64,000 nt of DNA. It comes from a virus. Each line of letters opens with the position of its first letter. Positions within the stretch are counted from its first letter, which is position 1. The notes under the pieces are model-generated. The model was not told the origin of the DNA, searched no databases, and saw nothing but the letters and a program-made list of their open reading frames with translations. Shown here piece after piece: positions 13,367 through 51,518 of the stretch. Location: the IMG/VR virus record IMGVR_UViG_3300039308_000034, positions 15,206 to 79,205 of that record, one strand, 5' to 3'. The position numbers were made by a program, and so were the translations under genes.

Positions 13367-13443
13367 AGTTCGGATGGTACTTAAAAAAGTGTTTAAGTCT
13401 TGGTGTGCAGAGGTTATACACTTTTTAATTTACTGTCCGAACC
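13367..13443. repeat. 28-bp bipartite sites #1 (13367-13394, +) and #2 (13416-13443, -), convergent, 21-bp spacer
   Basis: AGTTCGGATGG-TACTTA-AAAAAGTGTTT and, on the minus strand, GGTTCGGACAG-TAAATT-AAAAAGTGTAT. Confidence 0.9.
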
Positions 13444-13588
13444 AATCGCCCAAGCTCCAGCGAGCTACTGTGCGACCCCTCTCTTTGAAAGTAAATCGCT
13501 GCACATTCGCAATAAATCTGCTTCTGAGCATAAATAACTTGTTCTTCAAGAAAATAGAATTCAACCAATCAGTTTGTGCTTGTGGCAT
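13430..13588 (-). CDS. Small protein (52 aa, MPQAQTDWLNSIFLK...WFGQ), not in the supplied ORF track
   Basis: ATG at 13588 with AAGGA 5 nt upstream; fills the gap between nrdJ and the NrdR-like gene; stop lies inside site #2. Confidence 0.55.
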   Translation of the reverse strand: MPQAQTDWLNSIFLKNKLFMLRSRFIANVQRFTFKERGRTVARWSLGDWFGQ

Positions 13589-13616
13589 GATGTCCTTGAA
13601 AGAAATTCAAGTAGGC

Positions 13617-13640
13617 AGGGCGGAAAGCCGCCCTATTTTT
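13617..13640 (+). terminator. Intrinsic terminator-like hairpin
   Basis: AGGGCGG-aaag-CCGCCCT followed by ATTTTT; the U-tract is on the + strand, opposite to nrdJ. Confidence 0.6.
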
Positions 13641-13646
13641 CTGAGC

Positions 13647-16091
13647 TTATCGCTCCGACAAAAGACATTTATCGCTGTCACATCCAGCAGGACCCGCTTC
13701 GCTAATTTCCCCTTGGTCGTATCGGCTTAAGGCTACATAAAAGTCATCAATCTTTTGCCGCTGCAACACCTCTTTCAAGAGCTGATCGTACTTTGCTTGA
13801 TCAATCGGCTCGAATGGCAGACGTGGAAACGATTGATGGTCGTCAAACCGAGCCAGTAGGGTAGCAGAGATATAGCCCTCATCATTTTGAATTGCTTCGT
13901 AAATTCGCCGGGCAACTGCCTCAATTTCTGGTTCACGGAGTTCGATCGTTGCGGAAGTATTGTGTGCTGTATAGTGCTGTTGCACTTGCATATAGAAATC
14001 CAGCTGTGCCAGAGCCGAGAACTTGGAGATATCAATCTGGTCAGCTCCTGGCAGGTTTGCCCAACTCACTTCTACCGGAATTTCAACTAGCCATTCAGTG
14101 CAACGTGGTGAGAACGGATCGTTCAGTAAATTTCCCTGCTCATCCGTATCTGATTGAGCTGGAACTACGTTGTACCCATAGTCCAGACAAGCCAGTGCTA
14201 CTGGGTCATTTTTAGCAAAGGTGATTCGACGAATGCAGCGTTGCGCCTTGGGTGGGTGCCACCCTGGACTAGCACCTGTAAGAAGAGATTTTGTGCCGGA
14301 AGGTTGTACTGTTGTACAGCGATTAGGACATTTCAGCCCATGCTTGTCGCAATATTTCCAAACCTCACGGTGAACAATCGATTGCCAGAAATTGAGAAAA
14401 CTGGACTCTAAGAACGAAAAAATAGATGCAGTATTGCTTAGATCAACAGCATTCTCACCTGCAAACAGTGCAAGGAGTTCTGTAAGATTTGGATTTGCAT
14501 CGCAGCTATGCCATTCGATGGGTCGTCCGGCTTCCCACCAGCGGAGCCAGTCAACACCAAAGGCGTTAACGAAGAAATCAAATAGCCCAGTAAACGAGAC
14601 ACCGACAATTGGATCAAGCGATCGGGCTTCCTGGTATCGATCTTCAGTAAATTGATGATGCAATAGCCCCGCGACGAAAAGAGCACCTGCTGTAAACGCA
14701 TCATTCTGTTCCACAAGGTTCAGTGGATCAATTCGGTTGAGATGCACCTCGGAAAGATTGCAGTGGAAATTCGATGAAATAATTTCACCACAGGGATTTA
14801 GGGCATAGCGGATGATTCGATGATGCAACTCAGCTGCATCCATTTCTCTTCCATATTTCTGGAAAAATAGCTCCTGTAGATGTTCCTGCGCTAAGGATTG
14901 ATCCTCGTCATAATTTTCTAGAAACAGCTTTTTTTCGTAAGTTGTGCAGATCAGATCGCTGTTTGACCTGGCGACCGCCTCCCCTGCCCACTGAATTGCC
15001 CCTTCACCCGATTCATACTGAAGGTGTACTGCCTCCCAACATTCCTCTAAGGTTGGCTTACGGTGATAAACGCGAGTGTGATTTGCCATTCGCAGCGCGT
15101 CGCGTTTAGGGTCAATTTGCCAGTTTCCAGCTTCATCCTGACTCCAGAGGTTGAGCTTTAGCTGCGGATAGTCCGCGTCAAACTGACGAATTCCAGCACT
15201 TCTCCTGACGTTTCCTGCCACAACACATCGCGAGGCTTCATCAATCAACAGACAGCATTCTTCTGGGGTAAGCTGCCGCTCGATCGCCCCATTCAACAGG
15301 TGAGCCACTCTAGGAAATAGCTCTGGTAGCTTGCATGGATTTGCTACCCCCCCAAATCCATGCAAGCGTTCTCCCTGAGGCCGCACATAATTGAGTTCCA
15401 CTTGAACATGAAGCACTGACCCTATTGGGATATGCAATCCCTGCGGCATATCAAGCAGTCCAGGCTTTACAAACTCAGGCACAAAAATTGCAGAAGCTAG
15501 ATGCAGCAGTGATTCATATGCCTGCACCCATCCTTGGCGGCTATCGCCCACCTTAATGACAAACGACCAATAGTTTTGCGCGGACCAATCCTCAATTGTC
15601 GAAACCTCCCGCTTTGCCGAAATTCCTCCTGGTTGACCCAAAATGGAAACTTGCAATCGGTTCCGAATTACAGGCAGTTGGGAAATGCAGCGACTTTCTA
15701 GCACTGCTCCTGTGCCACAGCCCATCATTGCCAATTCCATAAGTAACCCAAAACTGCGCCAGTCTACTACCTCAGTCCCTGTGCAGTTATAAGCTCCTGA
15801 AAAATTTTCAGGCTTTTCTAGCCAGGGAGTTCCCCCAACCCAGAGCCAGCGACCTGATGGCAAGGCTTTGAGGGAGCGCTGCATCTGATTTAGTAAATGG
15901 AATTCTCCAGTTGAGAATTTTCCTAACTGGATGGCTCCAGCAAGCGTTCGATCGCATACTTCATTCCAGGATTCTCGCTGCTTTGCTGCTGTATTCCATC
16001 GGCTATAGGTTCGAGAAAACACAGGGTTGGCAGTTGGCGCAAAAAAATCGGATTTGACTTGGGATAGCATGGCTAACTTACTAAAGGACAA
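13647..16091 (-). CDS. nrdJ: Class II (adenosylcobalamin-dependent) ribonucleotide reductase
   Basis: PSGRWLW, YNC, VVAGNVRRSA, RMANHT, LNPCGEI...CNLSEV, TTVQPSGTKSLL and C-terminal GPAGCDSDKC; 814 aa, no intein seen. Confidence 0.93.
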   Translation of the reverse strand: MSFSKLAMLSQVKSDFFAPTANPVFSRTYSRWNTAAKQRESWNEVCDRTLAGAIQLGKFSTGEFHLLNQMQRSLKALPSGRWLWVGGTPWLEKPENFSGAYNCTGTEVVDWRSFGLLMELAMMGCGTGAVLESRCISQLPVIRNRLQVSILGQPGGISAKREVSTIEDWSAQNYWSFVIKVGDSRQGWVQAYESLLHLASAIFVPEFVKPGLLDMPQGLHIPIGSVLHVQVELNYVRPQGERLHGFGGVANPCKLPELFPRVAHLLNGAIERQLTPEECCLLIDEASRCVVAGNVRRSAGIRQFDADYPQLKLNLWSQDEAGNWQIDPKRDALRMANHTRVYHRKPTLEECWEAVHLQYESGEGAIQWAGEAVARSNSDLICTTYEKKLFLENYDEDQSLAQEHLQELFFQKYGREMDAAELHHRIIRYALNPCGEIISSNFHCNLSEVHLNRIDPLNLVEQNDAFTAGALFVAGLLHHQFTEDRYQEARSLDPIVGVSFTGLFDFFVNAFGVDWLRWWEAGRPIEWHSCDANPNLTELLALFAGENAVDLSNTASIFSFLESSFLNFWQSIVHREVWKYCDKHGLKCPNRCTTVQPSGTKSLLTGASPGWHPPKAQRCIRRITFAKNDPVALACLDYGYNVVPAQSDTDEQGNLLNDPFSPRCTEWLVEIPVEVSWANLPGADQIDISKFSALAQLDFYMQVQQHYTAHNTSATIELREPEIEAVARRIYEAIQNDEGYISATLLARFDDHQSFPRLPFEPIDQAKYDQLLKEVLQRQKIDDFYVALSRYDQGEISEAGPAGCDSDKCLLSER

Positions 16092-16093
16092 AC

Positions 16094-16615
16094 TTAATCA
16101 CGCTCGCGCGGCATCTGTACTGGAGAAAACACATCACAGCCGTCCTTCCCGTGACTGACTACCTTTAAGATGCGTTCTGGCTCAATCACATAAATCCGCT
16201 CAACATGAGCAACTGAATAAAACCGTTCTGCAATCTGCTGAATATCTCTAGCTCCATTCGGTTCGTCAAAATCGGTTTCACTTTGGGCAAACAGAACTAC
16301 CACAGGAACCCTATCCTTCTCTTGAAAAACCTGAATGGTGCAAAACTCTTTAAGAAACGTTCGAGTTGAAGTGCTTAACTGGTCAATTGCATACCCAACC
16401 CAAAAATCAGATAGGTCAGCTGCATCTAGATAAGGGTCAGATTGCCACTCGATCGCTGCTTCAAGGTCTTGGGCTTCAATCTTCTGCAAGTCAGCATCAG
16501 ATGGCTCTTGCCAATCCGATTGCTTGACTGGTGACCAGGCATATTGAACAAACTGCACTGCCAACAACGCCGACAGCCACACTCCTTTCAGGCTGAAGGC
16601 AATTTTTATGAGCAT
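16094..16615 (-). CDS. Hypothetical protein
   Basis: 173-aa ORF, GAGG RBS, first gene of the leftward operon. Confidence 0.65.
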   Translation of the reverse strand: MLIKIAFSLKGVWLSALLAVQFVQYAWSPVKQSDWQEPSDADLQKIEAQDLEAAIEWQSDPYLDAADLSDFWVGYAIDQLSTSTRTFLKEFCTIQVFQEKDRVPVVVLFAQSETDFDEPNGARDIQQIAERFYSVAHVERIYVIEPERILKVVSHGKDGCDVFSPVQMPRERD

Positions 16616-16713
16616 TGATCAAGCCTCGTTGCGACTTAAGATAATATACAGCGTTTTTTACCTTAAGGTGTTAATAGCTTAATATAAAATTAGCCGAGAA
16701 AAAGAGGAAGCGT

Positions 16714-17295
16714 GTGACGAAACCAATCAAGTTGGAAAGCGACGAGGTGGCGAAGCTCAAGCTGAAGATCAGCCATCTAGAAGGGCAGATTGCGGAATTA
16801 AAGGTAAACGCTGGAATTACTGAGCCCAGAATTAAAAAACTTAAATTACAGCGCGACGATAAAGGAAACGATCGGATTGCCATTACTTACCAGTCCCTAA
16901 CGCCTGATGGTGACTGGGACAATAGCTCTATCTCTCGTAAAGCCGCTGCTCGCCCCCAGTTTTATCATGCCCTTGAAGACCTGGCTCCTTACGTCTGTCT
17001 CATTTGTGAGCTGGACCCGGACTACAAAGAGGAAATGAGCATTATTGGGGTCAGCTTCTCGTATTCCGACGAAGATGTACCAGTCATGGGCGCAACAATT
17101 ACGGCTCAGAAGAAGTTGGAGACAGCAACCTCACCGCTCATCCTTAACACACCCCACAAGTCAGCCCAGCCATACGGTGGGGGTGAGGATGACTCCAATT
17201 GCTTTGACGAGAAAACTGTTCAGGCACTCAATCGAGTGAGTGAAGAATGTCAGCGATATTTGCGCGGCGAACGTGCCCAGCTGTCGTTTCTGTAA
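16714..17295 (+). CDS. Hypothetical phage protein
   Basis: 193-aa ORF divergent from the nrdJ operon. Confidence 0.7.
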   Translation: MTKPIKLESDEVAKLKLKISHLEGQIAELKVNAGITEPRIKKLKLQRDDKGNDRIAITYQSLTPDGDWDNSSISRKAAARPQFYHALEDLAPYVCLICELDPDYKEEMSIIGVSFSYSDEDVPVMGATITAQKKLETATSPLILNTPHKSAQPYGGGEDDSNCFDEKTVQALNRVSEECQRYLRGERAQLSFL

Positions 17296-17404
17296 GGAAA
17301 TCCTCAAGCATCAATGGGGGATTGATACAGAAAGCTGTTTGACATAAATCTGTTAGGGTCTAACTCGCTTGTCTCTCAAGCTGAAGGAAAAATGATAGAC
17401 AAAG

Positions 17405-18955: not shown

Positions 18956-19353
18956 TTTACCGTTTAGTTGTCGCAGCATCGATCGCCTTATTGACCGCTT
19001 GTTCTGGGAATGTTGCCCAATCCCAGGTTCGCTACACGCTACAACCTTTGAGTGAGAATTGTCAGCTTCCATCTCATTTCCAAAATCAAGCCCTTATTGA
19101 TCGAGCTGCAAGTGTTTCCCTGGGGAGTACTGTAGATACAGCAATCCAGCAAATGGGACAACCGACTCAACCAATCAGTCATTACCGCAACATTCAGGCG
19201 GTTTCAGCAACCTGGCAAGCTCAAGAAAGTGGAACTCAGTTTGAGGTTGGATTTGATTTTATGGATGGTAAAACACTGTCCGATCGAACTGTTACGCTGG
19301 CTTACAATCTAGGAACCCCCTCAGAAAAGCTTTGTACCTGGAAGATTCAGTAA
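18952..19353 (+). CDS. Predicted lipoprotein
   Basis: Signal peptide ending in lipobox LLTAC; small beta domain. Confidence 0.7.
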   Translation: MIYRLVVAASIALLTACSGNVAQSQVRYTLQPLSENCQLPSHFQNQALIDRAASVSLGSTVDTAIQQMGQPTQPISHYRNIQAVSATWQAQESGTQFEVGFDFMDGKTLSDRTVTLAYNLGTPSEKLCTWKIQ

Positions 19354-24860: not shown

Positions 24861-24920
24861 TTTAGGAAAGTCGTTTTTCCTAAAATTCTATAAAATTAGG
24901 AAAAACGATTTTCCTAAATG
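24861..24920. promoter_or_regulatory. Two TTAGGAAA-N6-TTTCCTAA palindromes upstream of parA (candidate parS/operator)
   Basis: 24863-24884 TTAGGAAAGTCGTTTTTCCTAA and 24897-24918 TTAGGAAAAACGATTTTCCTAA, mutually inverted with one mismatch. Confidence 0.7.
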
Positions 24921-36500: not shown

Positions 36501-39500
36501 AGGACTGTTCCAGATTCTGGGCAGCGTTCCGGCAGCCCTGATGGGTGACTTCTCCGGCATTCTGGCAGGCTGGCAAGTTGTGGCCGCAGGGATGAAGCAA
36601 GCGGCTGATTCATTGATGAGTGGAATGCAAACCATTTTTGGAGGTGGAGCACAAGTTATTCGTGGCATTTTTGAAGGGCTGGGGCAAATCGTCAAAGTTG
36701 ATGTCTTTGACAAGATGCTTAATGCTGCTAGAGAGTTTGTTTCTCAGGTGCAAGCCTGGTTTGAGAAGCTATCTAGCACAATGACCACTACCCTCAGCAA
36801 ACCAGCCGAGATGATGAGTGGTCTGTTTCGCCGGAAACAAAAAGGGGTTGCACCTGCGGCATCACCCATTCTGGAATCGCAGGCGATCGTTCCTGATATT
36901 CAAGCAGCTCCAATCATCAATGCAGTTCCCCTTATCCCCGAATCCCGTGCAGTTCAGCAATCCCCTTCAGTCTCTATTGCCCAACCCCAAATCTCCTCTT
37001 CAGCCTCCAGTTCCAATTTGGATAGCCTCACTCAACAACTCAGTACCGCTGAATCTGGAATTGAGACGATACAATCTCGAACCCAAACTGCACTCAATGC
37101 CACCACTTCCGGCATCAGTTCTTTAGGGGTTGCCCTCTCCAACTTTGCCCCCCAACTAGCAGCCCCACTGTTTATCCTTACCGATATGATTGATGGCTTT
37201 CTTGGGGTAACGCAGGCAATTCCAGTCTTCAAAGCAGCGATCGTAGGGAGTGCCGCAGTGACAGCCACCACGAATGTTGAAATGACTGCCAGTAACCTTG
37301 CCCTTGCCGGAAGCAACGAGATGGTTGCAGCGACAAGCCTGAGAACTCGACTAGCGATGATGCTCACGGCGGTTCAACAAAAGGCGATCGCTGCTTCAAA
37401 CTGGGTTGTTTCTGCCTCCAACTGGGTTGCGGTTCAGAGTCAGCAAGCCCTGTCCAGCGCCACAGTGCAGTCGGGTTTAGCAATGCTCTGGAATCAGATA
37501 CAACAAAAAGCTGCGACCACCTATAACGGGATGGTTGCTGCCTCCAACTGGCTTGTAGCAACCAGCCAGCAAGCGATTACTTGGGCAACTTCTGAGACCG
37601 GACTCGCAATGATTGGGGCAACCCTTCAGAAACAGGTGTCTACAGCCTGGAACTGGTTATTGGCAGCCAGCAATCAAGCTGTTGCCGGAACAACGACCGA
37701 AGCAGGATTGACAATGCTTTGGTACAGCATTCAATCGAAAGCAGCGGTGGTCTGGAATGGCATTTTGATGGGTTGGAACTGGTTGCTGTCTCTCAGCTTT
37801 GAAGGGATTGCAGTAGCGGCAACGGCGGCATGGTCAGCCGTTCTCGCACCCATCATGCCGGTCGTTCTGGCAATCGGGGCAGTTGTTGGAGCTGTTGTTT
37901 TGCTCTGGCAGGCATTCAAAAATAATTGGGGTGGCATGGGGGATGCCATGTCTGGGGTCATGCAGGGCATTCAGGACTTTTTTGCCCAAATTTGGAATGG
38001 AATCAAAGCAGTGGTGGCATTAGGGGTGCAGTTTGCTCAATTCTCCTTCTCGATCTCCCCAATCGTCATTGCCTTCAAAATGTTGTGGGGTGTAATTCAA
38101 GGGGTGTTAGTGGGAGTTGTCGCCGCTTGGAACTCGAGCTTCGCCATCATTGCTGAAAATATCAGCACAACCTTCGGCACAATCAAACAGGTTATTGTCT
38201 CTGCCTTTCAGCCTTTTTCTGAAATGTTTGCTCAACTCAGTAGCAGCCTCAATCAAAGCCAAAGGCAGGTCGGTGGACTGGGTACAGCAATTAGTGCGCT
38301 CGTCAATATCTTGCTGATTCCGACTAAACTCATCACCGCAGTACTTGGCGTATTGCTGCGAGCGATCGGACTGATTATGCAGGCGCTGGTCGTGGTCGGT
38401 GGAGTAATCTTTAAAGCCCTGCTTGTGCCCTTCCGCATTGTGGCAGGAGTCGTGATGGGCATCATCCAGATTGGGCTAGGCGTCAAAGATGTTTTCATGG
38501 ATGTGCTCGGTAGTGTCTGGGGTGCGTTGCAGTCGATCGCGCAAGCATTTCAACCGATGTTTGATGCGATTACCCAAATTGGCACAACTTTACGAGATGC
38601 CCTAAGCCCACTACTAGGAAAAGCTGCGGGCGGCGATAGCTTTGGAGCTGGAATTAAAGCAGTCATTAAAGCAGTCCTCATCCCAATTCGGGTTATTGCG
38701 GGAATTATTCAGGTCATCTTTAAGGCAATCTCGCTCATCATTAAGCTTGTTGCAGCTGTTCTTAGCCCTGTGATTCGGGGACTGGCTGTACCCATTCAAA
38801 TCGTGGCGACTACCTTAAAGATTGTCGTTGCTGTAATTAGTACAATCTTCAACGTGATTGGCAGCATCGTTTCCTTCATCGGCAGCGCGCTCCAGTCCAT
38901 TTACAATCTGATTCCGGCTCCCATCCGCTGGTTTTTGGAAACGATCGGCAAGGGAATTGGCTCAGTTGTGAGTTTCCTGTTCGGTAGTGGACAGCAAGAA
39001 CAGGCACAGCCCACTCAGAAGCCGCAGAAATTTGCCTCTGGAGGTTTGGTCACAAATCCGGGCTTAGTTTCTGGTGCAGGCGGTGGCACAAGCGATCGAA
39101 TTCCGGCAATGCTCAGTAATGGCGAGTTTGTGATGCGAGCAGCGGCAACGAGAATGTTTATGCCCTGGCTCAACGCGATGAATCAGGGTCAAAACCCGAT
39201 CGCCTCGCTGATGGGCGGCATGCAGCAACAGCAATCTAGCTTTGTGCAGGCTTTACTGTCAGGTACTCCGGCTAAATCAGCGCTGCAACTCTTACCGATC
39301 GCACCTCCGGCAATTCCTCAGACCCCGATTGCTCCAGCACAGCAGGCAAAGTTACCGGAAGGCGTGAGTGTAACGGTGCAACTGACGATTCAAAATATTA
39401 CTGTTGTCAGCGATAGCGATACCTCTAGCGCCGCTCGTCGATTAGCAGAGGAAGTGCAGCCCGAATTTGAACGTATGGTGCGCGATGCCCTCAGAGATAT

Positions 39501-39519
39501 TGTCGAGAAGATGCGATAA
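27547..39519 (+). CDS. Giant tail tape measure protein (3990 aa)
   Basis: TP901-type core (AKDLGASTRYSASEAASG..LAQAG), amphipathic W/F-periodic repeats, C-terminal FASGGLV..G.GGGTSDRIPAMLSNGEFV motif. Confidence 0.95.
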   Translation: MTEENKIERYGISAEYSFDASENTFATMKQVVAGLQTIEDAVKQTSSAIKQSGLAQNLRQMANQAGGAIGQATQQMQQMGQGSKQTGNQLQQLAQEFRALRAESKAIDLSEIADPQQFKKAETGLNEYIRQLEQLKKQIDTTTPQGRQMAAQIQREQMVASRQIGKINQQAQSSSQDAARQLGNLGKEFRALRAEAQNIDFGDLDDPNQFKQATQQIEKYITELKKLEAQVDKTSPEGRTLAAQMQRSQTIAGNRLDRANLERQSAKAQERQGMAAGVAGAGAAVMLPMIGLGKEAISTVSEFSDQMMEVKAVLDPKDWGMLDAIRQKAKDLGASTRYSASEAASGFVLLAQAGYDVDKQMKAIDGTLSLAAAGNLQLARATEITVSTLGQFQIDATKATHVANVLAKAAAMGQLDVNDMGESLKYAGGSAKRANVSFEQTSAMLALLSEGGLKGEMAGSNLASMMDSITAPSSTASKALRQLGIITKDARGNLLPFDRILGQLNNRLSKMGSGRRASFESAIFGTTGGRAASILLPRLSKLGSATSEIMNTADQGIGSAAEQAQIMESDIGGAFRSLQSAMQGAFIEIGERIAPAVKAATQAITGLLKTFIKLPEPIKTAIILTGAIVTGLATLAVVLGTVGIAFFGFQAAMAQAAIGMSAMAGAGVPLTGFFATVMQAFSTGGIITGFAGLGTSISTAAAALGAFITGPVGLLLVAGAAIVGLLEILTPGFNVLGTVVGVALSPIAFTFGLVRGALQGLWVALKPVVTEFSGMSGDGKYLSDVMQTIAKVLSNVAGVGKVAGKVLGFLVGAGIATPLKWLIKGFKFLIGMLRGVGMVAGTIAAPFVWAIQQIGRAWQGFVDWFQKMPLVKFALDIAQKLINALNHNPTERIPEAWDKAVQRIQGLFEWLGRAGQATAEVLSYLLDPSRIFKGILRGLITLVQNTISTIQDSGIGQVLDKIGFDAPIDGLQAGLEKLKAMTEDKPLQVEVIPKLDSTIQSVAETKPVSLAVQPVVDKPDLTSVQSIKPSAVPIQPTLSKTPALGMLPTPTAAPTLQTPNLSNFLSALTTQLETAKTIAAQTFGEIKQSWLDNWSFLQRSGTTDLSQLFAPGIDTLKAQLSTVRQDFQSFAQETIAAIGSMDWEKAKQSAQNFGTTLSGAAQSAGKAIGGLTLSTIALGVFSLTSLSPLVLILGGIGLTALAIATDFLGIRTAIMGVMKMIGGLINVVRGAIEVFVALLTTATNTVQGILKVLDGILPALRGDFSQMQAGWNQITQGFQAGAIEISQAFGRMGRGIGQVFEGAFQVVHGIGEGIFRAITGTAQAIKLIFQGIGATINGTAKLISLIGEGFRAIPSVVGEVGQKIQAKWQALNSWISNLNLVPDLSSFSKVGDRISGVLSSAKTLIQTGVEQIHSIWNGLKLNLPHLDLSPILGLPDRIQGIVQQAAGVVQSAIARIQQIWQTLTFHFPTLDLSHLTALPNRIQGVVQQATDVVQSAIARIQQIWQTLTFHLPTLDLSHLTALPDRIQGIITTIRSTFDAGTTQIRSTWDTISHLALPGLKTVIDTVKGLPPIFEGAIERIKSLWSGVGDKISSVLGFVRGKSKQVGEEITHNLSENSPGPTFQIRMKWAMTAESVQERMVSIAQQAKLSGQQIADRVVGGFEQIQVGAKAKLSGVKQQISSALNGKGVGAVGRSFSSVGMALSNISPQLAAPLFVMSDLIDTSQTLSETLPEAQKFFTGLLPKVKGLGGAVGGLVPKLAGMLSGLIPILTSLSTTAITALGAVVTPLLPIIGTIAAIGIGVILLRKAWQKNFLGIRSLVETIGSAIQSLFAGILKFADRFLNPLRLIQGLFSLIRQGLSGLGKLFIPLMGITTAIQGGWQGFKDWFNSLFNGLPIKAADASKKVQQALYTPTKKVPPPWEAAVQKVKEQIGSLTAMGQSIDLPQMTSPTIQPTIAPIPTITSPTIQPTIAPVSQITAPPILASTAPGLATIPPQIAQIKTGMEELGQTWQAETDQMQQQGIAAFTSVFSPLADRAKTAFGQLHQRVAEFVAQVQALMSNVTLDNLNEGIQGIGKQLKASVQQAGNSLNAATLSAIAFGVTSLLSLSPIILILGAIGLGALAIATNFLGVRTAILGVFKIVTGLFNTVRGGLETMTALITTVINAARSMAQILGGIPAAFRGDPSQMQAGFGSLVESFQTGASQIKQAFNRIGRGVGQIFEGAYQVVSGIVDGLIRLFQGLGQAIELVFKGASAIVTGLGRTFQLVGDGIQSLPGIVTTAGDKLKATWQNVTAAVHNLPFLPNLQDLQQLPDRVAGIFNIIKEQVQKGITQIQSAWQSWNLHLPEINLSSLQPVVERTKATAQQILGFFQNLTLRLPELNLSNLLNVPERISSTIAQIQATWTKLNLPFPEIKLSALQTIPDRVHSLISQVQNYWNSLALKFPLPDLSSLEGVSDRVRGVISATQEVIAAGIAQIRSIWQTLTTLDDVPILQGFVDFAKTLPDIFQAAIEQIKSLWGGLGDKVKNVFGFMRGKSKETGQEMISNLAENSPGPTFQIRQKWQMTAERIQAYLSGVAEHAQVTGQQIATQITAGTQQAATAAKTKLGAIGQSLNQALGGKGVYAMGRSFSSVGMVLSNFAPQAAAPLFMLSDLVDTSQTLSETLPETQKFFTGLLPKVKGLGGAVGGLLPKLGGLVSGIIPLFGSLGTAATTALAAIAGPLLPIIAGIAAVIAVGYLLYQAFKQNFLGIRSLVQGVGKALTGTFKLIGAVVQGIADLIGNTFGAAIQTVVRVASSIGSFLIAPFVAAKNQIQSAWQGFQQWFSGLMGGLPNLAAEAGKRIIGFLNHNPTIVIPDSWEGAVQRISGDLSTLPGVAQDVGQQMVGAIQPDTIPNQLSDSIGAFGETASTVAGQVSNGFKGMTLASVAFGVSSLTSLAPIALIMAGIALAALAVATNFLGIRTILGGLWRVIQGVVEIAVSGFKAVLQVLKGLFQILGSVPAALMGDFSGILAGWQVVAAGMKQAADSLMSGMQTIFGGGAQVIRGIFEGLGQIVKVDVFDKMLNAAREFVSQVQAWFEKLSSTMTTTLSKPAEMMSGLFRRKQKGVAPAASPILESQAIVPDIQAAPIINAVPLIPESRAVQQSPSVSIAQPQISSSASSSNLDSLTQQLSTAESGIETIQSRTQTALNATTSGISSLGVALSNFAPQLAAPLFILTDMIDGFLGVTQAIPVFKAAIVGSAAVTATTNVEMTASNLALAGSNEMVAATSLRTRLAMMLTAVQQKAIAASNWVVSASNWVAVQSQQALSSATVQSGLAMLWNQIQQKAATTYNGMVAASNWLVATSQQAITWATSETGLAMIGATLQKQVSTAWNWLLAASNQAVAGTTTEAGLTMLWYSIQSKAAVVWNGILMGWNWLLSLSFEGIAVAATAAWSAVLAPIMPVVLAIGAVVGAVVLLWQAFKNNWGGMGDAMSGVMQGIQDFFAQIWNGIKAVVALGVQFAQFSFSISPIVIAFKMLWGVIQGVLVGVVAAWNSSFAIIAENISTTFGTIKQVIVSAFQPFSEMFAQLSSSLNQSQRQVGGLGTAISALVNILLIPTKLITAVLGVLLRAIGLIMQALVVVGGVIFKALLVPFRIVAGVVMGIIQIGLGVKDVFMDVLGSVWGALQSIAQAFQPMFDAITQIGTTLRDALSPLLGKAAGGDSFGAGIKAVIKAVLIPIRVIAGIIQVIFKAISLIIKLVAAVLSPVIRGLAVPIQIVATTLKIVVAVISTIFNVIGSIVSFIGSALQSIYNLIPAPIRWFLETIGKGIGSVVSFLFGSGQQEQAQPTQKPQKFASGGLVTNPGLVSGAGGGTSDRIPAMLSNGEFVMRAAATRMFMPWLNAMNQGQNPIASLMGGMQQQQSSFVQALLSGTPAKSALQLLPIAPPAIPQTPIAPAQQAKLPEGVSVTVQLTIQNITVVSDSDTSSAARRLAEEVQPEFERMVRDALRDIVEKMR
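31849..32112 (+). repeat. Recent 132-bp (44-codon) tandem duplication inside the tape measure gene
   Basis: Near-identical units start at 31849 and 31981, partial third at 32113 (LPDRIQG...LDLSHLTA). Confidence 0.85.
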
Positions 39520-39544
39520 CACTTTTTGCAGCACCGTCCGAACT
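39517..39544 (-). repeat. 28-bp bipartite site #3
   Basis: AGTTCGGACGG-TGCTGC-AAAAAGTGTTA; contains the tape measure stop and lies 2 bp from the terS stop. Confidence 0.85.
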
Positions 39545-40368: not shown

Positions 40369-40410
40369 GAAAACTAAACGGCTTGATTCAAGTATGCCCA
40401 AATCAAGCCG
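40369..40410 (-). terminator. Terminator-like hairpin in the terS leader
   Basis: Perfect 10-bp arms CGGCTTGATT/AATCAAGCCG, followed on the minus strand by TTTAGTTTTC. Confidence 0.55.
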
Positions 40411-40440
40411 CTGCGTCAGTGTTTAAGCTAGTTTTCAGTT

Positions 40441-40517
40441 GGTTCGGATGACATTTCAAAAAGTGTTTATGTGGATCTATCTGAACAAGAAACACTTTTT
40501 GATTTACCATCCAAACC
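40441..40517. repeat. 28-bp bipartite sites #4 (40441-40468, +) and #5 (40490-40517, -), convergent, 21-bp spacer
   Basis: GGTTCGGATGA-CATTTC-AAAAAGTGTTT and, on the minus strand, GGTTTGGATGG-TAAATC-AAAAAGTGTTT. Confidence 0.9.
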
Positions 40518-42368: not shown

Positions 42369-42416
42369 AAAACTTTACAGCAGATTAAAGAATTCTTTAA
42401 TCTGCTGTAAAGTTTT
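42369..42416. repeat. Perfect 48-bp palindrome (candidate telomere resolution site)
   Basis: AAAACTTTACAGCAGATTAAAGAA|TTCTTTAATCTGCTGTAAAGTTTT, no loop and no mismatch. The palindrome is certain; the function is inferred. Confidence 0.85.
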
Positions 42417-45746: not shown

Positions 45747-45763
45747 CATCTCTATAAAAACTT

Positions 45764-45788
45764 GGTTCGGAAGTGCCTCCTCCGAACC
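45764..45788. repeat. Palindrome made of two left-arm half-sites
   Basis: GGTTCGGA-agtgcctcc-TCCGAACC, 17 bp after the cro-like stop. Confidence 0.65.
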
Positions 45789-45863: not shown

Positions 45864-47606
45864 TTGCTCCTTCCTAAGCTCTACACAACAGGGAGGCGGA
45901 GTATGGTAGCGGCTAGTCATCTAAACATTGTGCCACTCCAAAGAAAACGTACTCCCGACATTCCAACTGCTTTTGAGATGGGATTGCTAGGCATAGGTAC
46001 TGTTGCCTTTCGGATTTTCTACGATTTGAGAGAACTCGCCAAGCCTATGGTCGATCGCCAGGGGCAAGAACGGCTAGGGATAAAAATTGGCTTGGCTGCA
46101 ATTGCTAAACGCTGTATTCTGCCCGATCGCCCGAATGCCTCTGCTGCTGTTCTCCGGCGCGCAGTTTTTCATGGCATTGCTGAGATTGAAGCCTGTGGTT
46201 TAATCCACATCGAAAAATCAACTACTGCCTCTAAAGAAGCAAATTGCTATTTTTTCTCAGAACGAACTGAGTGGTGCAAACGTCCAGAGAACTTTGCTTC
46301 CAGCAATATCCGCCAGGGGCGACCCAAGGGGATAACCAAGAAGAAAACTAGATCTTCAGATGATCTACTGCAAAATTCGAGCTTGCCCCCTAGATCACCC
46401 GAAGATCTAGTGCAAATTAACGATTTAGAAGCTAGATCTTCGGATGATCTAGTCGTGCAAAATGGACGAAACCCGCATTCTTCCGTTGAGAGTCTACAAA
46501 AAATCTCTGAAGCTAGATCTTCGGATGATCACTTTAAATATGTATATGTAGATCAGGATGTAGAAGTAACTAAAGATCTTGATTTAAACCAGAGTATTGA
46601 AGAAAGAAATACTTTATTGCGTAGACTCAGCGCGATCGACGCCTCTACTGGCTCTATACCAGTTGAACTACCTTCAAACGTTGAGTTGCATTTCAACCCT
46701 GAATTAATTTCACCTGTTCAGCCCAATACTGTAGAGCCACAAAGCCGATCGGCTCAGACTCTTTCTGGCGGGACGAATTCTACGAAGGTGAAAAAAACAA
46801 AACGACAGATAGACAAGGAGAAATATCTCCTACCGGATACAGGGGTCAATAAGGTCGCCGCACTGCCCAATGTTTCGCCGGAAGGGGTTGCTATTTTTGA
46901 AGCCTGGTTTCCCCAGTGGAAGGAGCGCTATCGATCGGTGCGAAACCGCTATGCGGATCAGACAATGGCAGCGATTCACTTCGCTCGGATGGTTCAGATC
47001 CAATTGGAGGAGGGGGAGTTTGATTCCGAAGCGGAACTCTATCAAGCGTTCTGGGAGCGGTGTTTGGTCTGGAACAAGCAGACGGATGACAAAATTCTAC
47101 GGGGCGATCGGTGTATCGAGATGCCTGACGTAGATGGGTTTTTATTGGGCAGGCATGGCGGTGAACCCTACTGGAAGCCCTGTATCCCCGAATCAGAGCC
47201 GCCAATCCCGCATGCTGAGCGATTTACTGCCGTTTGGCAGCAAGCTTACGCCGAGTACCTTTCCTTGCAGCAGGGAGGCTGTGATGTGTCGCCCGGTTCC
47301 CATGATGAGGCAAAACGAGTTTGGGCAATGCTCTACGTCGATGAACCACCTTGTGACATTGAAGCATTGATCAAGTTTTATTTTCAGCACAAACGTGAGC
47401 GGCTGGGCCGGAGCGGCAATATTGCAATTAGCAAATTCAGTAATTTGATTCGCCCTGAAAGTCTGAAGTATGTGCGGGATGTTATGCATCAAAAGCAACC
47501 AAGTGAGTCCAACGAGGCAAGACCCAAAACAGAATCTGAGCTGATGTTAGAAGCCGCATTGGAGGAACTGCGAAAACAGCCGATCGGAGGTGTAACTTAT
47601 GGTTAA
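45864..47606 (+). CDS. Replication initiator (lambda-O-like layout)
   Basis: N-terminal winged-HTH-like region, central RSSDDL repeats encoded by iterons, directly upstream of and overlapping dnaB; start may be 45902. Confidence 0.75.
   Translation: MLLPKLYTTGRRSMVAASHLNIVPLQRKRTPDIPTAFEMGLLGIGTVAFRIFYDLRELAKPMVDRQGQERLGIKIGLAAIAKRCILPDRPNASAAVLRRAVFHGIAEIEACGLIHIEKSTTASKEANCYFFSERTEWCKRPENFASSNIRQGRPKGITKKKTRSSDDLLQNSSLPPRSPEDLVQINDLEARSSDDLVVQNGRNPHSSVESLQKISEARSSDDHFKYVYVDQDVEVTKDLDLNQSIEERNTLLRRLSAIDASTGSIPVELPSNVELHFNPELISPVQPNTVEPQSRSAQTLSGGTNSTKVKKTKRQIDKEKYLLPDTGVNKVAALPNVSPEGVAIFEAWFPQWKERYRSVRNRYADQTMAAIHFARMVQIQLEEGEFDSEAELYQAFWERCLVWNKQTDDKILRGDRCIEMPDVDGFLLGRHGGEPYWKPCIPESEPPIPHAERFTAVWQQAYAEYLSLQQGGCDVSPGSHDEAKRVWAMLYVDEPPCDIEALIKFYFQHKRERLGRSGNIAISKFSNLIRPESLKYVRDVMHQKQPSESNEARPKTESELMLEAALEELRKQPIGGVTYG
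46348..46600 (+). promoter_or_regulatory. Probable replication origin: four iterons plus AT-rich tract
   Basis: CTAGATC-N7-GATCTA units at 46348, 46390 and 46432 (42-bp period) and a one-arm-degenerate unit at 46513, followed by TTTAAATATGTATATG. Confidence 0.8.
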
Positions 47607-48957
47607 TTCTGCCAAGGTCGTTTCTTTCTCAGGCGATCGAGATTTACTGCCACCCCACAACATCGACGTTGAAGAAGTCATTTTAGGGGGAATTCTTCTT
47701 GATCCTGTAGCGATCGAACGAGTGCAAGACATTCTGCTTCCTGAAGCCTTTTATATCTCTGCTCATCAGGAGATTTTTAGAGCCGCGTTAAGCCTGAACA
47801 ATCAGGGAAAAAACCCGGACATTATGCAGGTTGCAACCTGGTTACATGATCACGGGTTGCTCGAAAAAATCGGCGGGCAAGCTCGCCTGGCAGATTTGAT
47901 GGGAAGCGTGGTATCTGCGGTCAACATTGACCAATATGCTGCGCTCTTGATGGACAAATACACTCGCAGGCGGCTGATCGAGGTTAGCCATGAAATTCAG
48001 TCCATTGCCTATGATGGAACACAACCAGTCGAGCAAATACTCGATCTATCTGAGCAAAAGCTTTATGCCGTAAATCAATCTCTTAACACGGCTCAACTCT
48101 CGGCAACACCGGTTGGAGAGATTTGCGATGAACTCTATATCGATTTAGAAGCAGGATTTTACCCAGGGCTAACAACGGGACATCTAGATTTCGATGCGCT
48201 AACTGGTGGATATTTCCCTGGAGAGTTAACGGTTGCAGCTGGTGCAACCAGTATGGGGAAATCGCATTACGGTACTGCTCTCAGTTATGCCATTGCTGCA
48301 AGACATCGACTGCCAACAGTTATTTTTACTTGTGAAATGCCGAAAAAGCAATACACTGAAAGGCTTTTGGCACATGTCACGCTTGTGAACTCGATGAAAA
48401 TCCGATTTCGGCAAATTCCCCAAGACGACAGAGCGACTTGGGAAAAGATTTTGCAAGGCAGCAATCATTTGGCTGAGCAGCCCATTTACATCTATGACTG
48501 CTCCAACCCCAGCTACACCCAGATGCGATCAATTCTGCGCCGGGTTCCGGCTCCCAACGGAATTGGGTTAGTGGTGCTGGACTATTTACAACTCCTGCAA
48601 GGTCAGGAGGACAAAGAAAATCGCGCCCGCGAACTCAACCGGATTACCTGGGGCTGTAAGCAGATTGCGATGGAATTTAATACCTCCTTTCTGGCACTCT
48701 CCCAAATCCGTCGAGATGTTTCAACCCGTGCCAACAAACGCCCCACTCTCGACGACTTGTATGAGTCCGGAGCGATCGCCAACCACAGCGATCGAGTCAT
48801 GTTTTTCTACCGGGACGACTACTACAATCCCGATTCTTCTGACAGGGGAATCATTGAATTGATTGTGGCAAAGGTTCGCGCAGGTGCAACCGGAACCTGC
48901 AAAATGCTGTTCGATCCCACAACCAGTAGATTTTTGAACGTCAAAACCTATGGCTAA
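47599..48957 (+). CDS. dnaB: Replicative DNA helicase
   Basis: LPPHNIDVEEVILGGILLD, AGATSMGKS, VVLDYLQLL, LSQIRRDV.TRANKRP.LDDLYESGAI, ELIVAKVRAGATG. Confidence 0.96.
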   Translation: MVNSAKVVSFSGDRDLLPPHNIDVEEVILGGILLDPVAIERVQDILLPEAFYISAHQEIFRAALSLNNQGKNPDIMQVATWLHDHGLLEKIGGQARLADLMGSVVSAVNIDQYAALLMDKYTRRRLIEVSHEIQSIAYDGTQPVEQILDLSEQKLYAVNQSLNTAQLSATPVGEICDELYIDLEAGFYPGLTTGHLDFDALTGGYFPGELTVAAGATSMGKSHYGTALSYAIAARHRLPTVIFTCEMPKKQYTERLLAHVTLVNSMKIRFRQIPQDDRATWEKILQGSNHLAEQPIYIYDCSNPSYTQMRSILRRVPAPNGIGLVVLDYLQLLQGQEDKENRARELNRITWGCKQIAMEFNTSFLALSQIRRDVSTRANKRPTLDDLYESGAIANHSDRVMFFYRDDYYNPDSSDRGIIELIVAKVRAGATGTCKMLFDPTTSRFLNVKTYG

Positions 48958-49117
48958 CACTTCCTGTGCCTGGTGTACCAATCCCGTTTCATTGTCAGAT
49001 TCAATTTCACTGAATGGTAAGCGGATGCCGTTTTTCTATCACAAGAATTGCTTCAACGAGTATGAGGTATGGTTTCGTCGCACTGCCAATCGTCGCTGCA
49101 ATCCGCTTTCTCGTTAG
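48950..49117 (+). CDS. Small Zn-finger-like protein (55 aa), not in the ORF track
   Basis: MANTSCAWC...FYHKNCF; overlaps the dnaB stop by 8 bp. Confidence 0.55.
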   Translation: MANTSCAWCTNPVSLSDSISLNGKRMPFFYHKNCFNEYEVWFRRTANRRCNPLSR

Positions 49118-49190
49118 TTGCGTTTTATTGCAAAGAAGCAATTAAAGCAGTCAAAAAGGTTAAAAGTTTTATGTTAGCCTGTAAAATTTA

Positions 49191-49469
49191 ATGCAATTGG
49201 AAGCTCTCATTCAGGTAGAATCCCGCTGTCTTCAGTCTGCTCTCAATACCGCCGGATTTGCACTGCAACCTTTTCAAAGTGGTTGCTATGGACTTCGCAT
49301 CGTTTCGGGGAGACATAGCCTCTATGCGGTCGTCTTCCTGCCCAATCCGGTCTTTGATTGGGTTGTTCTACCTCGGATGGCAGCTCGATCGCCACAGTAT
49401 CAGGCGATCGAACAAATCGTTAATTCTACTTTGAGGAAAAGCAATGCAGGTTTTTGCAAGTCAGCTTAA
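49191..49469 (+). CDS. Hypothetical protein
   Basis: 92-aa ORF in the + operon. Confidence 0.55.
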   Translation: MQLEALIQVESRCLQSALNTAGFALQPFQSGCYGLRIVSGRHSLYAVVFLPNPVFDWVVLPRMAARSPQYQAIEQIVNSTLRKSNAGFCKSA

Positions 49470-49653
49470 AGAGCATGACGTGATTCGCTATGGTTCTGGT
49501 AGCACGATACAAAGTTTTGAGGTTGTTAATGTTCGTCCCGGGCAGATGGGGGTAAACCTGTGGCTGCGACCTGTCAATCAAAAGCTAACCCAGGAAGTTT
49601 TTCTACTCAATACGCGCAAGGTGGAGCAGCTGCGATCGGCGACAATTGTTTAG
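49444..49653 (+). CDS. Small hypothetical protein, SH3/KOW-like
   Basis: 69 aa, QLKEHDVIRY...FEVVNV beta pattern. Confidence 0.55.
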   Translation: MQVFASQLKEHDVIRYGSGSTIQSFEVVNVRPGQMGVNLWLRPVNQKLTQEVFLLNTRKVEQLRSATIV

Positions 49654-49654
49654 C

Positions 49655-49682
49655 GGTTCGGACGGTAAAACAAAAAGCGTTT
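49655..49682 (+). repeat. 28-bp bipartite site #6
   Basis: GGTTCGGACGG-TAAAAC-AAAAAGCGTTT, 1 bp after the stop at 49653. Confidence 0.85.
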
Positions 49683-49778
49683 TATCTTTTAAGGGAATCG
49701 GCTAAGATAAAAGCAGGCAAAAAATTAGGGAGAAGCGTTGCAACCGCGACTCCCTCTTGCAAAAAATACAATTCAACC

Positions 49779-50876
49779 ATGATCTTAGCACCTTTCACGG
49801 CTCCTGCGGCGCAGGATATTAGCCGTTACTCTGAGTTATCAGATTTTGCTGCCCTTGCTGAGGCTCCCCTTGAAGAACAATTAGCCTGGGCTTGTTTCCG
49901 ACTCAACGTGCTGGAGTCGCAAGCTTATGACTTGAAGAAGGATTTAACCAATCCTCGGCGAGCCCACCTGGCACAGCCCAAGCTTGAGCACACATTGGCA
50001 GAGCAAAGACAACTGCGGGAAGCAATCCAAGCAAGTTGCCCCAGAATCGCGGTCTACCAAACGCATCAACACAGTTGGCAGTGGCGCGAAATTCCAGAAT
50101 TTAGGATTGGTGATCGAGTGAAAGTCCTCTGGGCAGAACCAGGGATGGAAGCTGATATTGGACGGGTTGGTACGGTAGGAGAAGGAGGAGTTGATCGACG
50201 GCTGCGAGTTTGGCTAGACATTGATGCCTTGGGACGGCTCCTTCTCCCAGAACAGCTCCAGGCTTTTAGAACCAATCGCCATACTCAGAAGCTCGATAAT
50301 CTACAAGCCAAATTAGAGGACCTGCAAGCCCAGCGTGACGCAATACTGGCGCAAGGAGAAGTCCAGCCTGGCTGCTGGCTCACGATGTATCCAACAACCA
50401 AGGGCTCTGGCAAAAAGTGCGGCAACACTGATGGAGGATACGCCTTCTGGTGCTGGCAACAAAATGGCAAAACCAAAAAGAAAGCCATTCAGCCAAATGA
50501 ACTAGGGCACTATGAAAACATCCATAATCGCACTAAGAAACTGAAAGCGGTTAATCAGGCGATCGCCCGCATTGAGAAACAGATTGATGCTTGTGTATCT
50601 GTTTGTGCAGGCAGCAAAATTTCTTATAAGCCAGATACAACAGGCAAATCGATCGGGCAATATGACTGGTACGATTCCCGAGACCAATATCCTTTTGGGA
50701 ACTATCCCCACCGCACATTTAATATCACCGTGTTTCAGTGGCAGGCAGCTGCAAAGGGAGGCTTAAAGCGTGGCAAGACGATCGCTAAGCATCGACTTAG
50801 CATTGATGCCAGCCCTGCAGAAATTGAGCAGGCGCGCCAGTGGGCGATTGAGGAAGTGAGAAAGCTAGATGGTTGA
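49779..50876 (+). CDS. Hypothetical protein with KOW-like motif and coiled-coils
   Basis: FRIGDRVKVL...IGRVGTV motif; start moved to ATG 49779 because site #6 lies in the longer ORF. Confidence 0.65.
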   Translation: MILAPFTAPAAQDISRYSELSDFAALAEAPLEEQLAWACFRLNVLESQAYDLKKDLTNPRRAHLAQPKLEHTLAEQRQLREAIQASCPRIAVYQTHQHSWQWREIPEFRIGDRVKVLWAEPGMEADIGRVGTVGEGGVDRRLRVWLDIDALGRLLLPEQLQAFRTNRHTQKLDNLQAKLEDLQAQRDAILAQGEVQPGCWLTMYPTTKGSGKKCGNTDGGYAFWCWQQNGKTKKKAIQPNELGHYENIHNRTKKLKAVNQAIARIEKQIDACVSVCAGSKISYKPDTTGKSIGQYDWYDSRDQYPFGNYPHRTFNITVFQWQAAAKGGLKRGKTIAKHRLSIDASPAEIEQARQWAIEEVRKLDG

Positions 50877-50889
50877 AACGTTTCAATCT

Positions 50890-50925
50890 AAACGGGGGAC
50901 TCTAGTAAGGGATCCGCCCGTTTTT
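50890..50925 (+). terminator. Terminator-like hairpin
   Basis: AAACGGG-GGA...TCC-G-CCCGTTT followed by a T-run. Confidence 0.5.
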
Positions 50926-50943
50926 GTCAGCAAAATTGCGATC

Positions 50944-50971
50944 GGTTCGGATGGTGTAACCAAAAGTGTTT
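50944..50971 (+). repeat. 28-bp bipartite site #7
   Basis: GGTTCGGATGG-TGTAAC-CAAAAGTGTTT. Confidence 0.9.
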
Positions 50972-50988
50972 CTCTCTTTCTTGATCCT

Positions 50989-51405
50989 ATGCGTGACTTT
51001 AAGCCTGAAGAAATCCTTGATCTATTAGACGAGGTAAGACAGGACATTCAAATTTGTGTTCGCCAAGCCACTTCAACTGATGATGTGAACTATGGCATTC
51101 CAGCACAGGCACAATTGGTTTGCCGAGCGGTACGCGGACTGATTGTTCCAGAGAAATCGTTCTCAATCGCCGCTGGACAAAATGTGTCGGTCGGTGGTTA
51201 CCTTGGCTATATCTCTGCAGAAGACCTACAGCGATCGGATATTAAGCCAAATCTCCAACTGCTCTGGGAAGGCAAAACATACCAGATTGAATATCGTCGG
51301 GGCATTCAAGCGAATCAGGGTGAGGTATTGCTACATGAATTAGGCTTGCGGCAAACACAGTCTCAAACATTTGCAACCCAGCCCGATCCCGTGATCAATT
51401 TTTAA
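50989..51405 (+). CDS. Probable head-closure (SPP1 gp16-like) neck protein
   Basis: 138 aa; YISAEDL..SDIKPNLQLLWEGKTYQI pattern; start moved to ATG 50989, downstream of the terminator and site #7. Confidence 0.6.
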   Translation: MRDFKPEEILDLLDEVRQDIQICVRQATSTDDVNYGIPAQAQLVCRAVRGLIVPEKSFSIAAGQNVSVGGYLGYISAEDLQRSDIKPNLQLLWEGKTYQIEYRRGIQANQGEVLLHELGLRQTQSQTFATQPDPVINF

Positions 51406-51490
51406 ATTTGGGGAATTCTGAATTGAGTAGAAAACACCTTGATCCGGCTCGATCGACATGCCATAGCCAATCGAGCCATTTTTGTTTTTG

Positions 51491-51518
51491 AAACACTTTT
51501 GGTTACACCGTCCGAACC
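51491..51518 (-). repeat. 28-bp bipartite site #8
   Basis: GGTTCGGACGG-TGTAAC-CAAAAGTGTTT; 27/28 identical to #7; 7 bp after the adaptor stop. Confidence 0.9.

Follow-up and report, generated by a model that had tools for sequence, protein, structure and literature searches.

We describe a set of eight short sequence elements in a virus genome, IMG/VR record IMGVR_UViG_3300039308_000034, which is classed as a provirus, has an estimated completeness of ~77%, and is 80,751 bp long; the window analyzed here is the 64,000-nucleotide stretch at positions 15206 to 79205 of that record. Each element is 28 bp long and consists of a left (L) and a right (R) arm of 11 bp, unrelated to each other, around a center of 6 bp. 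The sites are real, discrete, and selected as two-part words at gene boundaries. We hypothesize that they form a dispersed network of asymmetric, operator/stoperator-like sites read by two DNA-binding modules, a reading to which we assign a probability of roughly 45%. A preliminary description of the same DNA had offered either a multi-site inversion network or the binding sites of a regulator or transcriptional roadblock; the second option is the one that we now favor, whereas the first failed the tests that we ran.

The sites were recovered at the positions and on the strands first reported for them, with zero or one mismatch to RGTTCGGAYRG-N6-MAAAAGTGTTW, a consensus for which 100 dinucleotide-preserving shuffles gave a chance expectation of 0. 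With the tighter consensus GGTTCGGAYGGT-N5-MAAAAGTGTTT, the eight sites show 0 to 2 mismatches and the next-best match shows 5, over the 80.7-kb record and an extension of ~10 kb beyond its right end. On the basis of this gap, the set is discrete and closed rather than the top of a continuum; the extension, including 3.4 kb of host DNA, carries no site. Column-wise information shows that the two arms are conserved and the center is variable, save for a T at position 12 in seven of the eight sites. Conserved arms around a variable center, in a discrete set, fit a sequence-specific reader and not decaying repeat copies.

All eight sites are intergenic in a window of which only ~6% is intergenic by a conservative gene list (p ~5e-11). 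It had been claimed that five of them adjoin the stop codon of a co-directional gene; the placement is borne out and the count is four by our gene calls, with sites 3, 5, 6, and 8 beginning 1 to 7 bp past such a stop, which is more than expected even given their intergenic position (p ~0.004). Sites 7 and 2 lie 67 bp and 203 bp, respectively, past the nearest long co-directional gene. With respect to transcription, six of the eight sites share the direction of the gene ending upstream of them, and the other two are the second members of inverted pairs. Asymmetric, dispersed, and found in short intergenic spaces in all eight copies, the sites resemble in these respects those of a phage repressor operator network. 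Site 3 supplies, as its last three bases, the TAA stop codon of the 3990-aa gene, which converges on terS; the stop codon of terS itself is 2 bp off. As this site makes up the entire spacer between convergent genes, it is the place where a barrier to read-through is most obviously needed. Site 6 marks the border between the replication genes and the next block, which holds at least one structural gene. Terminator-like hairpins lie ahead of sites 7 and 8 on the plus strand. The features under discussion are listed in Table 1.

Table 1. Sites and associated features (window coordinates, except for the last row, which uses those of the related contig L059)
Feature	Position	Strand	Center	Remarks
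Site 1	13367..13394	+	TACTTA	AGTTCGGATGG-TACTTA-AAAAAGTGTTT; partner of site 2, R arms inward
Site 2	13416..13443	-	TAAATT	21 bp from site 1; in gap after ribonucleotide reductase (RNR) gene; 96 nt upstream of NrdR-type Zn-ribbon gene
Site 3	39517..39544	-	TGCTGC	Whole gap between convergent tape-measure gene and terS
Site 4	40441..40468	+	CATTTC	Partner of site 5, R arms inward
Site 5	40490..40517	-	TAAATC	Begins 4 bp past stop of 153-aa gene; 21 bp from site 4
Site 6	49655..49682	+	TAAAAC	Begins 1 bp past stop of 69-aa gene; 96 nt upstream of 365-aa gene
Site 7	50944..50971	+	TGTAAC	After intrinsic-terminator-like hairpin (50881-50917); 17 nt upstream of 138-aa open reading frame (ORF)
Site 8	51491..51518	-	TGTAAC	Begins 7 bp past stop of head-tail adaptor gene
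Left-arm-core palindrome	45764..45788	.		GGTTCGGA-N9-TCCGAACC; 18 bp past stop of Cro/CI-type gene
Cro/CI-type helix-turn-helix (HTH) protein, 90 aa	45474..45746	+		HTH_26, E = 5e-4, 20.7 bits (curated Pfam cut-off, 22); candidate left-arm reader
NrdR/Ogr-like Zn-ribbon protein P0003, 160 aa	12837..13319	-		Gene directly downstream of pair 1/2; plausible right-arm reader
SigF/SigB/FliA-type (group 3) sigma factor	8048..9229	-		Reader if the sites were promoters
C2c8-like gene P0001	6435-8047			Tail to tail with sigma gene; C2c8-like, E = 1e-77
Intrinsic terminator	13617..13634	+		Downstream of pair 1/2, just before RNR stop
Strong intrinsic terminator	40377..40412	-		16-bp stem and T run; between pair 4/5 and terS start
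L059 element, four copies	2347-2399, 7734-7786, 9815-9867, 13264-13316			In relative L059

Six of the sites occur in inverted arrangements. Pairs 1/2 and 4/5 have the same geometry, 28+21+28 bp: the R arms point inward, the gap is exactly 21 bp, and the two spacers are unrelated in sequence. That two independent pairs keep the same gap around unrelated spacers suggests a geometric constraint of the kind typical of protein assemblies. Sites 7 and 8 face each other across 519 bp around the 138-aa ORF; their common center, TGTAAC, and a common GATC flank make of the two a 33-bp inverted repeat in which a single position is mismatched. A further clue to how the arms may be read comes from a palindrome made of the left-arm core alone, in which the second half-site begins at position 18, that is, in the register of the right arm in the 28-bp sites. 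This palindrome is upstream of a 580-aa gene (no family match; iteron-like repeats) and of the DnaB gene. On its simplest reading, the left arm would have a reader of its own that pairs with itself at the palindrome and with a different right-arm reader at the eight sites. The iteron-like units in the 580-aa gene, CTAGATC-N7-GATCTAG, are at 46347-46452, and a copy is found at 1637-1699 in the first giant ORF.

The element that carries the sites encodes the terS product, a head-tail adaptor, tail proteins, and a 3990-aa tape-measure protein with a widely conserved tape-measure motif at its C terminus, as well as a beta clamp, DnaB, an SNF2 helicase, a class II RNR, and a protein resembling thymidylate synthase. 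Also encoded are ParA and ParB, the SigF/SigB/FliA-type sigma factor, the Cro/CI-type HTH protein, the NrdR-type Zn ribbon, and a TnpB-like protein. The sequence HIP1 (GCGATCGC), richness in which is a hallmark of cyanobacteria, occurs 22 times in the window, both strands counted; the host is a cyanobacterium, and the DNA is a HIP1-rich prophage of a temperate phage. A Logan contig from the source run, SRR13207077, prolongs the right end of the record with portal and large terminase genes followed by a host-type 1570-aa hybrid histidine kinase gene; past the record's right end, positions 10869 to 16900 of this contig (L037) hold the portal gene, a 222-aa gene, the large terminase gene (GpA_ATPase), an 88-aa gene, and the host hybrid histidine kinase gene. 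Because host DNA begins beyond the large terminase gene, the element is a prophage and is longer than the IMG/VR record, and as a prophage it needs a silencing system. No nucleotide match to phage records was found.

Several other features of the element were observed. The terS gene is ~35 kb distant from that of the large terminase. In the part of the record to the left of the window (L009, 1526-12856), genes for two PAPS-reductase-domain proteins, a radical SAM enzyme, an N6-type DNA methyltransferase, and a sulfotransferase are clustered and may constitute a DNA-modification module. A perfect loopless palindrome of 48 bp at 42369-42416 lies in a 455-bp divergent intergenic region, and Logan contigs break exactly there; no protelomerase (PF16684) was detected in the record.

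We propose that the sites are cis-acting binding sites of phage-encoded regulators, namely, asymmetric two-part operators located where one gene ends and another begins. Occupied sites, as in the prophage state, would act as gates at which RNA polymerase is halted between one gene and the next block; where a site overlaps a start region, the downstream promoter would be held shut. The two unrelated 11-bp arms would be read by different modules; these could be domains of a single protein or belong to two proteins kept in a fixed 17-bp register. Gating would be in one direction at single sites and in both directions at the tight pairs within an operon, one before the block of NrdR-like, thymidylate synthase, clamp, and sigma factor genes and the other before terS. 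A gate at a gene end explains six of the sites directly and the remaining two as second halves of two-way gates. We infer the protein binding and the gating effect from the discreteness, placement, orientation, and pair spacing of the sites and from the left-arm palindrome.

As to the identity of the readers, the 90-aa Cro/CI-type protein is a candidate for the left arm, since the palindrome of two left-arm cores lies 18 bp past the stop codon of its gene. For the right arm, with its GTGT/ACAC core, P0003 is a plausible reader. The only recognizable part of P0003 is the NrdR-type Zn ribbon (E = 5e-15), and the ESM Atlas places it nearest to small Zn-ribbon proteins of viruses, some of which share the Ogr/Delta family of phage late-gene activators; its AlphaFold2 model is poor (predicted local distance difference test score, 55). 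Any likeness of the right arm to an NrdR box, judged by eye, is confined to GTGT/ACAC and is too weak to count. ParB is a less likely reader of the sites because a separate palindrome sits directly upstream of parA: this inverted repeat, at 24861-24918 with 23-nt arms (TTTAGGAAAGTCGTTTTTCCTAA and TTAGGAAAAACGATTTTCCTAAA), is probably the par operator or centromere. Two other likenesses were considered and dropped, namely, that of GGTTCGGA to a tRNA T arm (no flanking stem and G at position 58) and that of the sites to solitary CRISPR repeats (variable center and no hairpin).

Several points weigh against a gating network. The readers are candidates only: the HTH match of the 90-aa protein is weak, and P0003 has no full-length relatives, its Zn ribbon alone being common to other proteins. 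Eight sites are few for genome-wide silencing, and many operons have none. The motif is shared by none of the relatives found. A specific footprint of 22 bp split as 11-6-11 is larger than that of known stoperator or C1 systems. Further, the sites may function as promoters in either polarity or have a dual operator/promoter role. No RNA sequencing runs containing this DNA were found.

The rival explanations are, in order of decreasing likelihood, sigma factor promoters, RNA elements, recombination sites, selfish repeats, and targets of a C2c8 protein. That the sites are promoters for the phage's own group 3 sigma factor is doubtful, even though this factor is encoded in the genome and the two conserved blocks span 28 bp, near the 27 to 29 bp of a -35/-10 pair. 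Read forward, GGTTC-N17-GTGTTT loosely resembles the SigB/SigF class, the consensus of which is GGTTT-N15-17-GGGTAT; read in reverse, WAAC-N16-TCCGAACC loosely resembles the sigma-28 class (TAAA-N15-GCCGATAA); that such resemblance is found in both polarities is a measure of how weak these matches are. In the forward polarity, the sites would drive the operon from the NrdR-like gene to the sigma factor gene (autoregulation), terS, the 365-aa and 138-aa genes, and a small plus-strand RNA, and some of the local architecture suits this: site 7 follows a terminator and precedes an ATG by 17 nt, site 6 is at the border of the replication genes and the 365-aa gene, and the plus-strand terminator at 13617-13634 implies a plus-strand start within pair 1/2 and a short transcript confined to the gap between the RNR and NrdR-like genes. 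(The part of this gap between the RNR gene and pair 1/2, 13444-13646, contains, besides the terminator, a possible 46-aa minus-strand ORF and may encode a small RNA.) However, sense-upstream placement fails for the set. Sites 2, 5, 6, and 7 face gene starts 96, 166, 96, and 17 nt away, whereas sites 3, 4, and 8 face antisense and site 1 faces the gap with the terminator; in the reverse polarity, sites 1 and 4 alone face genes. With 4 or 5 of the 8 sites facing a gene in one polarity and 2 in the other, promoters explain about half of the sites at best, and the earlier objection that about half face antisense was correct. In addition, the two starts within a pair would overlap face to face, the nonconserved part is only 5 to 6 bp compared with 11 to 17 bp in known sigma factor promoters, the L-N9-L' palindrome cannot serve as a promoter, sites are missing from most structural operons, and site 3 lies between convergent genes. 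A consensus scan found no host-type sigma-70 promoters overlapping the sites. Read in reverse as promoters, most sites would give rise to antisense transcripts beginning at the stop codon of the gene upstream; this version, with the sigma factor acting in the AAACACTTTT-to-CCGAACC polarity and six of eight sites firing antisense RNAs at or close to such stop codons, we consider improbable. The targets would be terS, the head-tail adaptor, 365-aa, 153-aa, and 69-aa genes, and the 3' region of the RNR gene; a sigma-driven antisense network would then time or silence virion and replication genes, with the tight pairs as back-to-back divergent promoters. In a bolder variant, the nuclease-dead C2c8 protein discussed below would help to place the sigma factor through an 8-nt match to the right arm. 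About as improbable is the idea that the sites act in RNA, where paired copies would form hairpins with an internal loop that serve as RNase III-type processing, stability, or antitermination signals, and where distant copies (site 3 with site 4; site 6 or 7 with site 8) would offer alternative long-range pairing. In minus-strand RNA, pair 4/5 is predicted to form a near-perfect hairpin with 28-bp arms (z = -5.7; -66 kcal/mol for the gap), with the terminator immediately after it; six of the eight sites lie 3' of a gene in the sense orientation, the L-N9-L' palindrome is itself a hairpin, and plain palindromes able to form hairpins are found at gene ends in the related phage L059. The three differences between sites 4 and 5 are all G-U compatible on the sense strand. 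Pair 1/2 folds more weakly (z = -2.7), three of its four differences break pairing, and overall, five of seven transition differences are compatible (p ~0.23). Sites 3 and 6 lack a partner close by, similarity is no higher between partners than between nonpartners, and no Rfam match at gathering thresholds was found in the window. Further, both arms keep one sequence in all copies; pairing alone would permit drift, and a sequence-specific reader is therefore indicated.

For recombination, the case lies in the layout: all eight sites have the 28-bp 11-6-11 form of a recombinase core site of the dif/pdif kind and fall outside ORFs, and sites 7 and 8, inverted, with the same center and a 33-bp repeat, would at minimum flip the 138-aa ORF. 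Known core sites of tyrosine and serine recombinases have dyad-related arms. Here, only 1 of 11 positions is identical when the left arm is set against the right arm in reverse complement, and the centers match only in sites 7 and 8, so that strand exchange among the other six would be blocked. The absence of a recombinase, noted before for the window, extends to the whole record: Phage_integrase, Resolvase, ResT-TelK, rve, and Y1_Tnp gave no match in the 80.7 kb (~77% of the element by estimate), and none is listed in the ~10-kb extension. The contigs of the sole run with this DNA, which cover sites 3 to 8 and can miss rare forms, are co-linear with it and show no inverted or deleted joint. 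A resemblance of the left arm to the XerC arm, put at 7/11 in the preliminary description, was found at 6 to 7/11 and, by a rough estimate over both arms and both strands, is within chance. XerCD dif/pdif sites are similar to the present ones in being 28 bp long, split 11-6-11, and built of two different arms; they differ in that dif arms are partly dyad related and are bound by two paralogous recombinases, whereas here the arms are unrelated (1/11), the centers vary among sites, no recombinase was found, and no product was seen. A second contig in the sample joins a tape-measure paralog to a copy resembling site 5, with different DNA between, which may mean that the site marks a mosaic boundary. 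With unrelated arms, differing centers, and neither a recombinase found in the record nor a rearranged joint over sites 3 to 8, the inversion network is unsupported; any inversion or deletion system is very unlikely, and sites 7 and 8 are at most a formal candidate for one invertible segment. Selfish repeats of the host or phage, similar to REPIN or miniature inverted-repeat transposable elements, with mobile inverted doublets, singlets as remnants, and no phage function, are slightly less likely still. They would account for the two 77-bp doublets that form hairpins, for the intergenic location 3' of genes that is typical of REP elements, for the single copy on a second contig of the same sample, and for sites 7 and 8, which resemble terminal inverted repeats flanked by GATC. 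Against them, variation is restricted to the center and the arms are near-invariant in every copy, unlike in the decay of transposed copies, and the doublet spacers are unrelated. The record has no Y1 (RAYT-type) or DDE (rve) transposase, none of the genome, metagenome, or viral contigs in the collections contains more than a single exact match, and the ~10-kb extension, host DNA included, has no copies. The REPIN/REP doublets that RAYT transposases mobilize are alike in forming hairpins as inverted doublets plus singlets 3' of genes and different in that here there is no RAYT gene, only the center varies, and no further copies occur in the public genomes scanned. Least probable of all is that the right arm is the target of the nuclease-dead C2c8 (type V-U2, TnpB-like) protein P0001 through a short guide beginning with ACACTTTT, the left arm being read by the sigma factor or another protein. 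In P0001, Ala replaces the RuvC-I Asp, Gln replaces the RuvC-II Glu, and the Zn-ribbon/RuvC-III part is lacking; the homologs of P0001 in the same subclade, 36 to 56% identical, all lack PF07282 and lie on phage-like contigs, and where the DNA downstream of these relatives is available, it has a conserved noncoding scaffold and, after it, CRISPR-like units that end in GATCGCAC or GTGGAAC. The 236-nt gap 3' of P0001 has the conserved scaffold and three GATC[AG]CAC repeat-end motifs (~0.03 expected), and the ACACTTTT after the first of them equals positions 3 to 10 of the reverse right arm in seven of the eight sites. A nuclease-dead effector and a guide locus are therefore present in the same genome, and there are precedents in TldRs with 9- to 11-nt guides (bioRxiv 10.1101/2023.11.30.569447) and in RNA-guided transcription by dCas12f-sigmaE (PMC12259090), which likewise combine a nuclease-dead TnpB/Cas12-family gene and a guide locus with, as here, a sigma factor gene alongside. 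However, the match to the right-arm core is just 8 nt without extension, rather than at least 9 to 16 nt with a conserved target-adjacent motif, and its 5' flank is a loose WA; moreover, the ACACTTTT stretch aligns within the conserved scaffold of the relatives, upstream of their first repeat, and is probably not a spacer. The phage has no target for the guide that follows the repeat end at 8023-8032, which is the one that does align with the relatives. For candidate guides 2 and 3, no convincing targets were found, no match of 11 nt or longer was found between the gap 3' of P0001 and the sites, and the guides of the relatives are not enriched in their own flanks. A sigma factor gene is a neighbor in none of seven P0001 relatives and belongs here to group 3, not to the extracytoplasmic function class; a complex prediction for P0001 and the sigma factor scored 0.01, which argues neither for nor against binding, and the left arm is left unexplained.

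Comparative searches bear on how the proposed operators may have evolved. The motif was not found in the viral contig collection; genome contigs gave 11 single matches and metagenome contigs 13, about the number that we estimate for chance, and the best of these, L013/L032 from a cyanobacterial metagenome-assembled genome, have no protein in common with this phage. Protein searches of viral contigs with the terS product, the head-tail adaptor, and P0003 gave no match, and no homolog of the 365-aa protein was found. The nearest relatives, reached through the C2c8-like gene, are L144 (three proteins with 59, 50, and 38% identity) and L059 (five proteins with 35 to 49% identity), and the motif is absent from both. 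L059 has an element of its own, TTTTGGGATATGG-N21-23-CCATATCCCAAAA, in four copies over 21 kb; three copies lie between genes, two of them 3 to 6 bp past a co-directional stop codon, the fourth lies in a gene-free gap after the C2c8-like gene, and the hairpins have no trailing U tract; a protein linked to this element was not identified. This suggests that inverted repeats at gene ends, with a center of ~21 bp and a sequence specific to each lineage, are a recurrent feature of this phage group, as expected for sites that coevolve with their reader. A ninth site, a 29-nt near-copy of site 5, was found on a 24,591-nt contig of the same sample and the same depth. The contig begins with a 92% identical copy of 39180-39260, the 3' end of the tape-measure gene, that is absent from this record, and the ninth site follows 493 nt on; the contig is probably a second, related prophage of the same host. 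The shared 60-aa stretch is a common tape-measure motif, a search with which returned 80 unrelated loci, and nothing was retrieved with the C-terminal fragment of the giant protein as the query.

To our knowledge, gene regulation in temperate cyanophages is almost unexplored, and a small and discrete set of two-part sites at the borders of genes makes it directly accessible to experiment. Should the arms prove to have different readers, the system would show a way in which dispersed operator networks, of the kind found in mycobacteriophages and P1, can be assembled from heterologous components. The outcome also removes the tempting and unsupported claim of an inversion network without a recombinase, and the nuclease-dead C2c8 protein beside a phage sigma factor in the same locus deserves attention in its own right.

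Among known systems, the operators and stoperators of cluster A mycobacteriophages, read by L5 gp71 and its counterpart in TipsytheTRex, are similar to the sites described here in being asymmetric, dispersed through a temperate phage genome, and confined to short spaces at the ends of genes, and apparently also in their orientation, which for most copies follows transcription; L5 has more than 20 such repressor sites, which are read by a two-domain monomer (PMC9283540). The differences are that the present sites are 28 bp split as 11-6-11 and not 13-mers, number 8 and not more than 20, include inverted pairs of fixed spacing, and occur in a phage of a cyanobacterial host in which no homolog of a gp71-type repressor was recognized. 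The operators of phage P1 occur singly and as inverted doublets. With 22 asymmetric 17-bp C1 operators (PMC8546580) dispersed over a large temperate phage genome that also has ParAB, P1 offers a second parallel, with the differences that its sites are contiguous and overlap promoters of specific genes, whereas those described here abut stop codons and no C1 homolog was found. The L5/TipsytheTRex repressor sites and the P1 C1 operators are the closest known systems, and the network proposed for the cyanobacterial prophage departs from both through the 11-6-11 architecture and the inverted pairs of fixed spacing.

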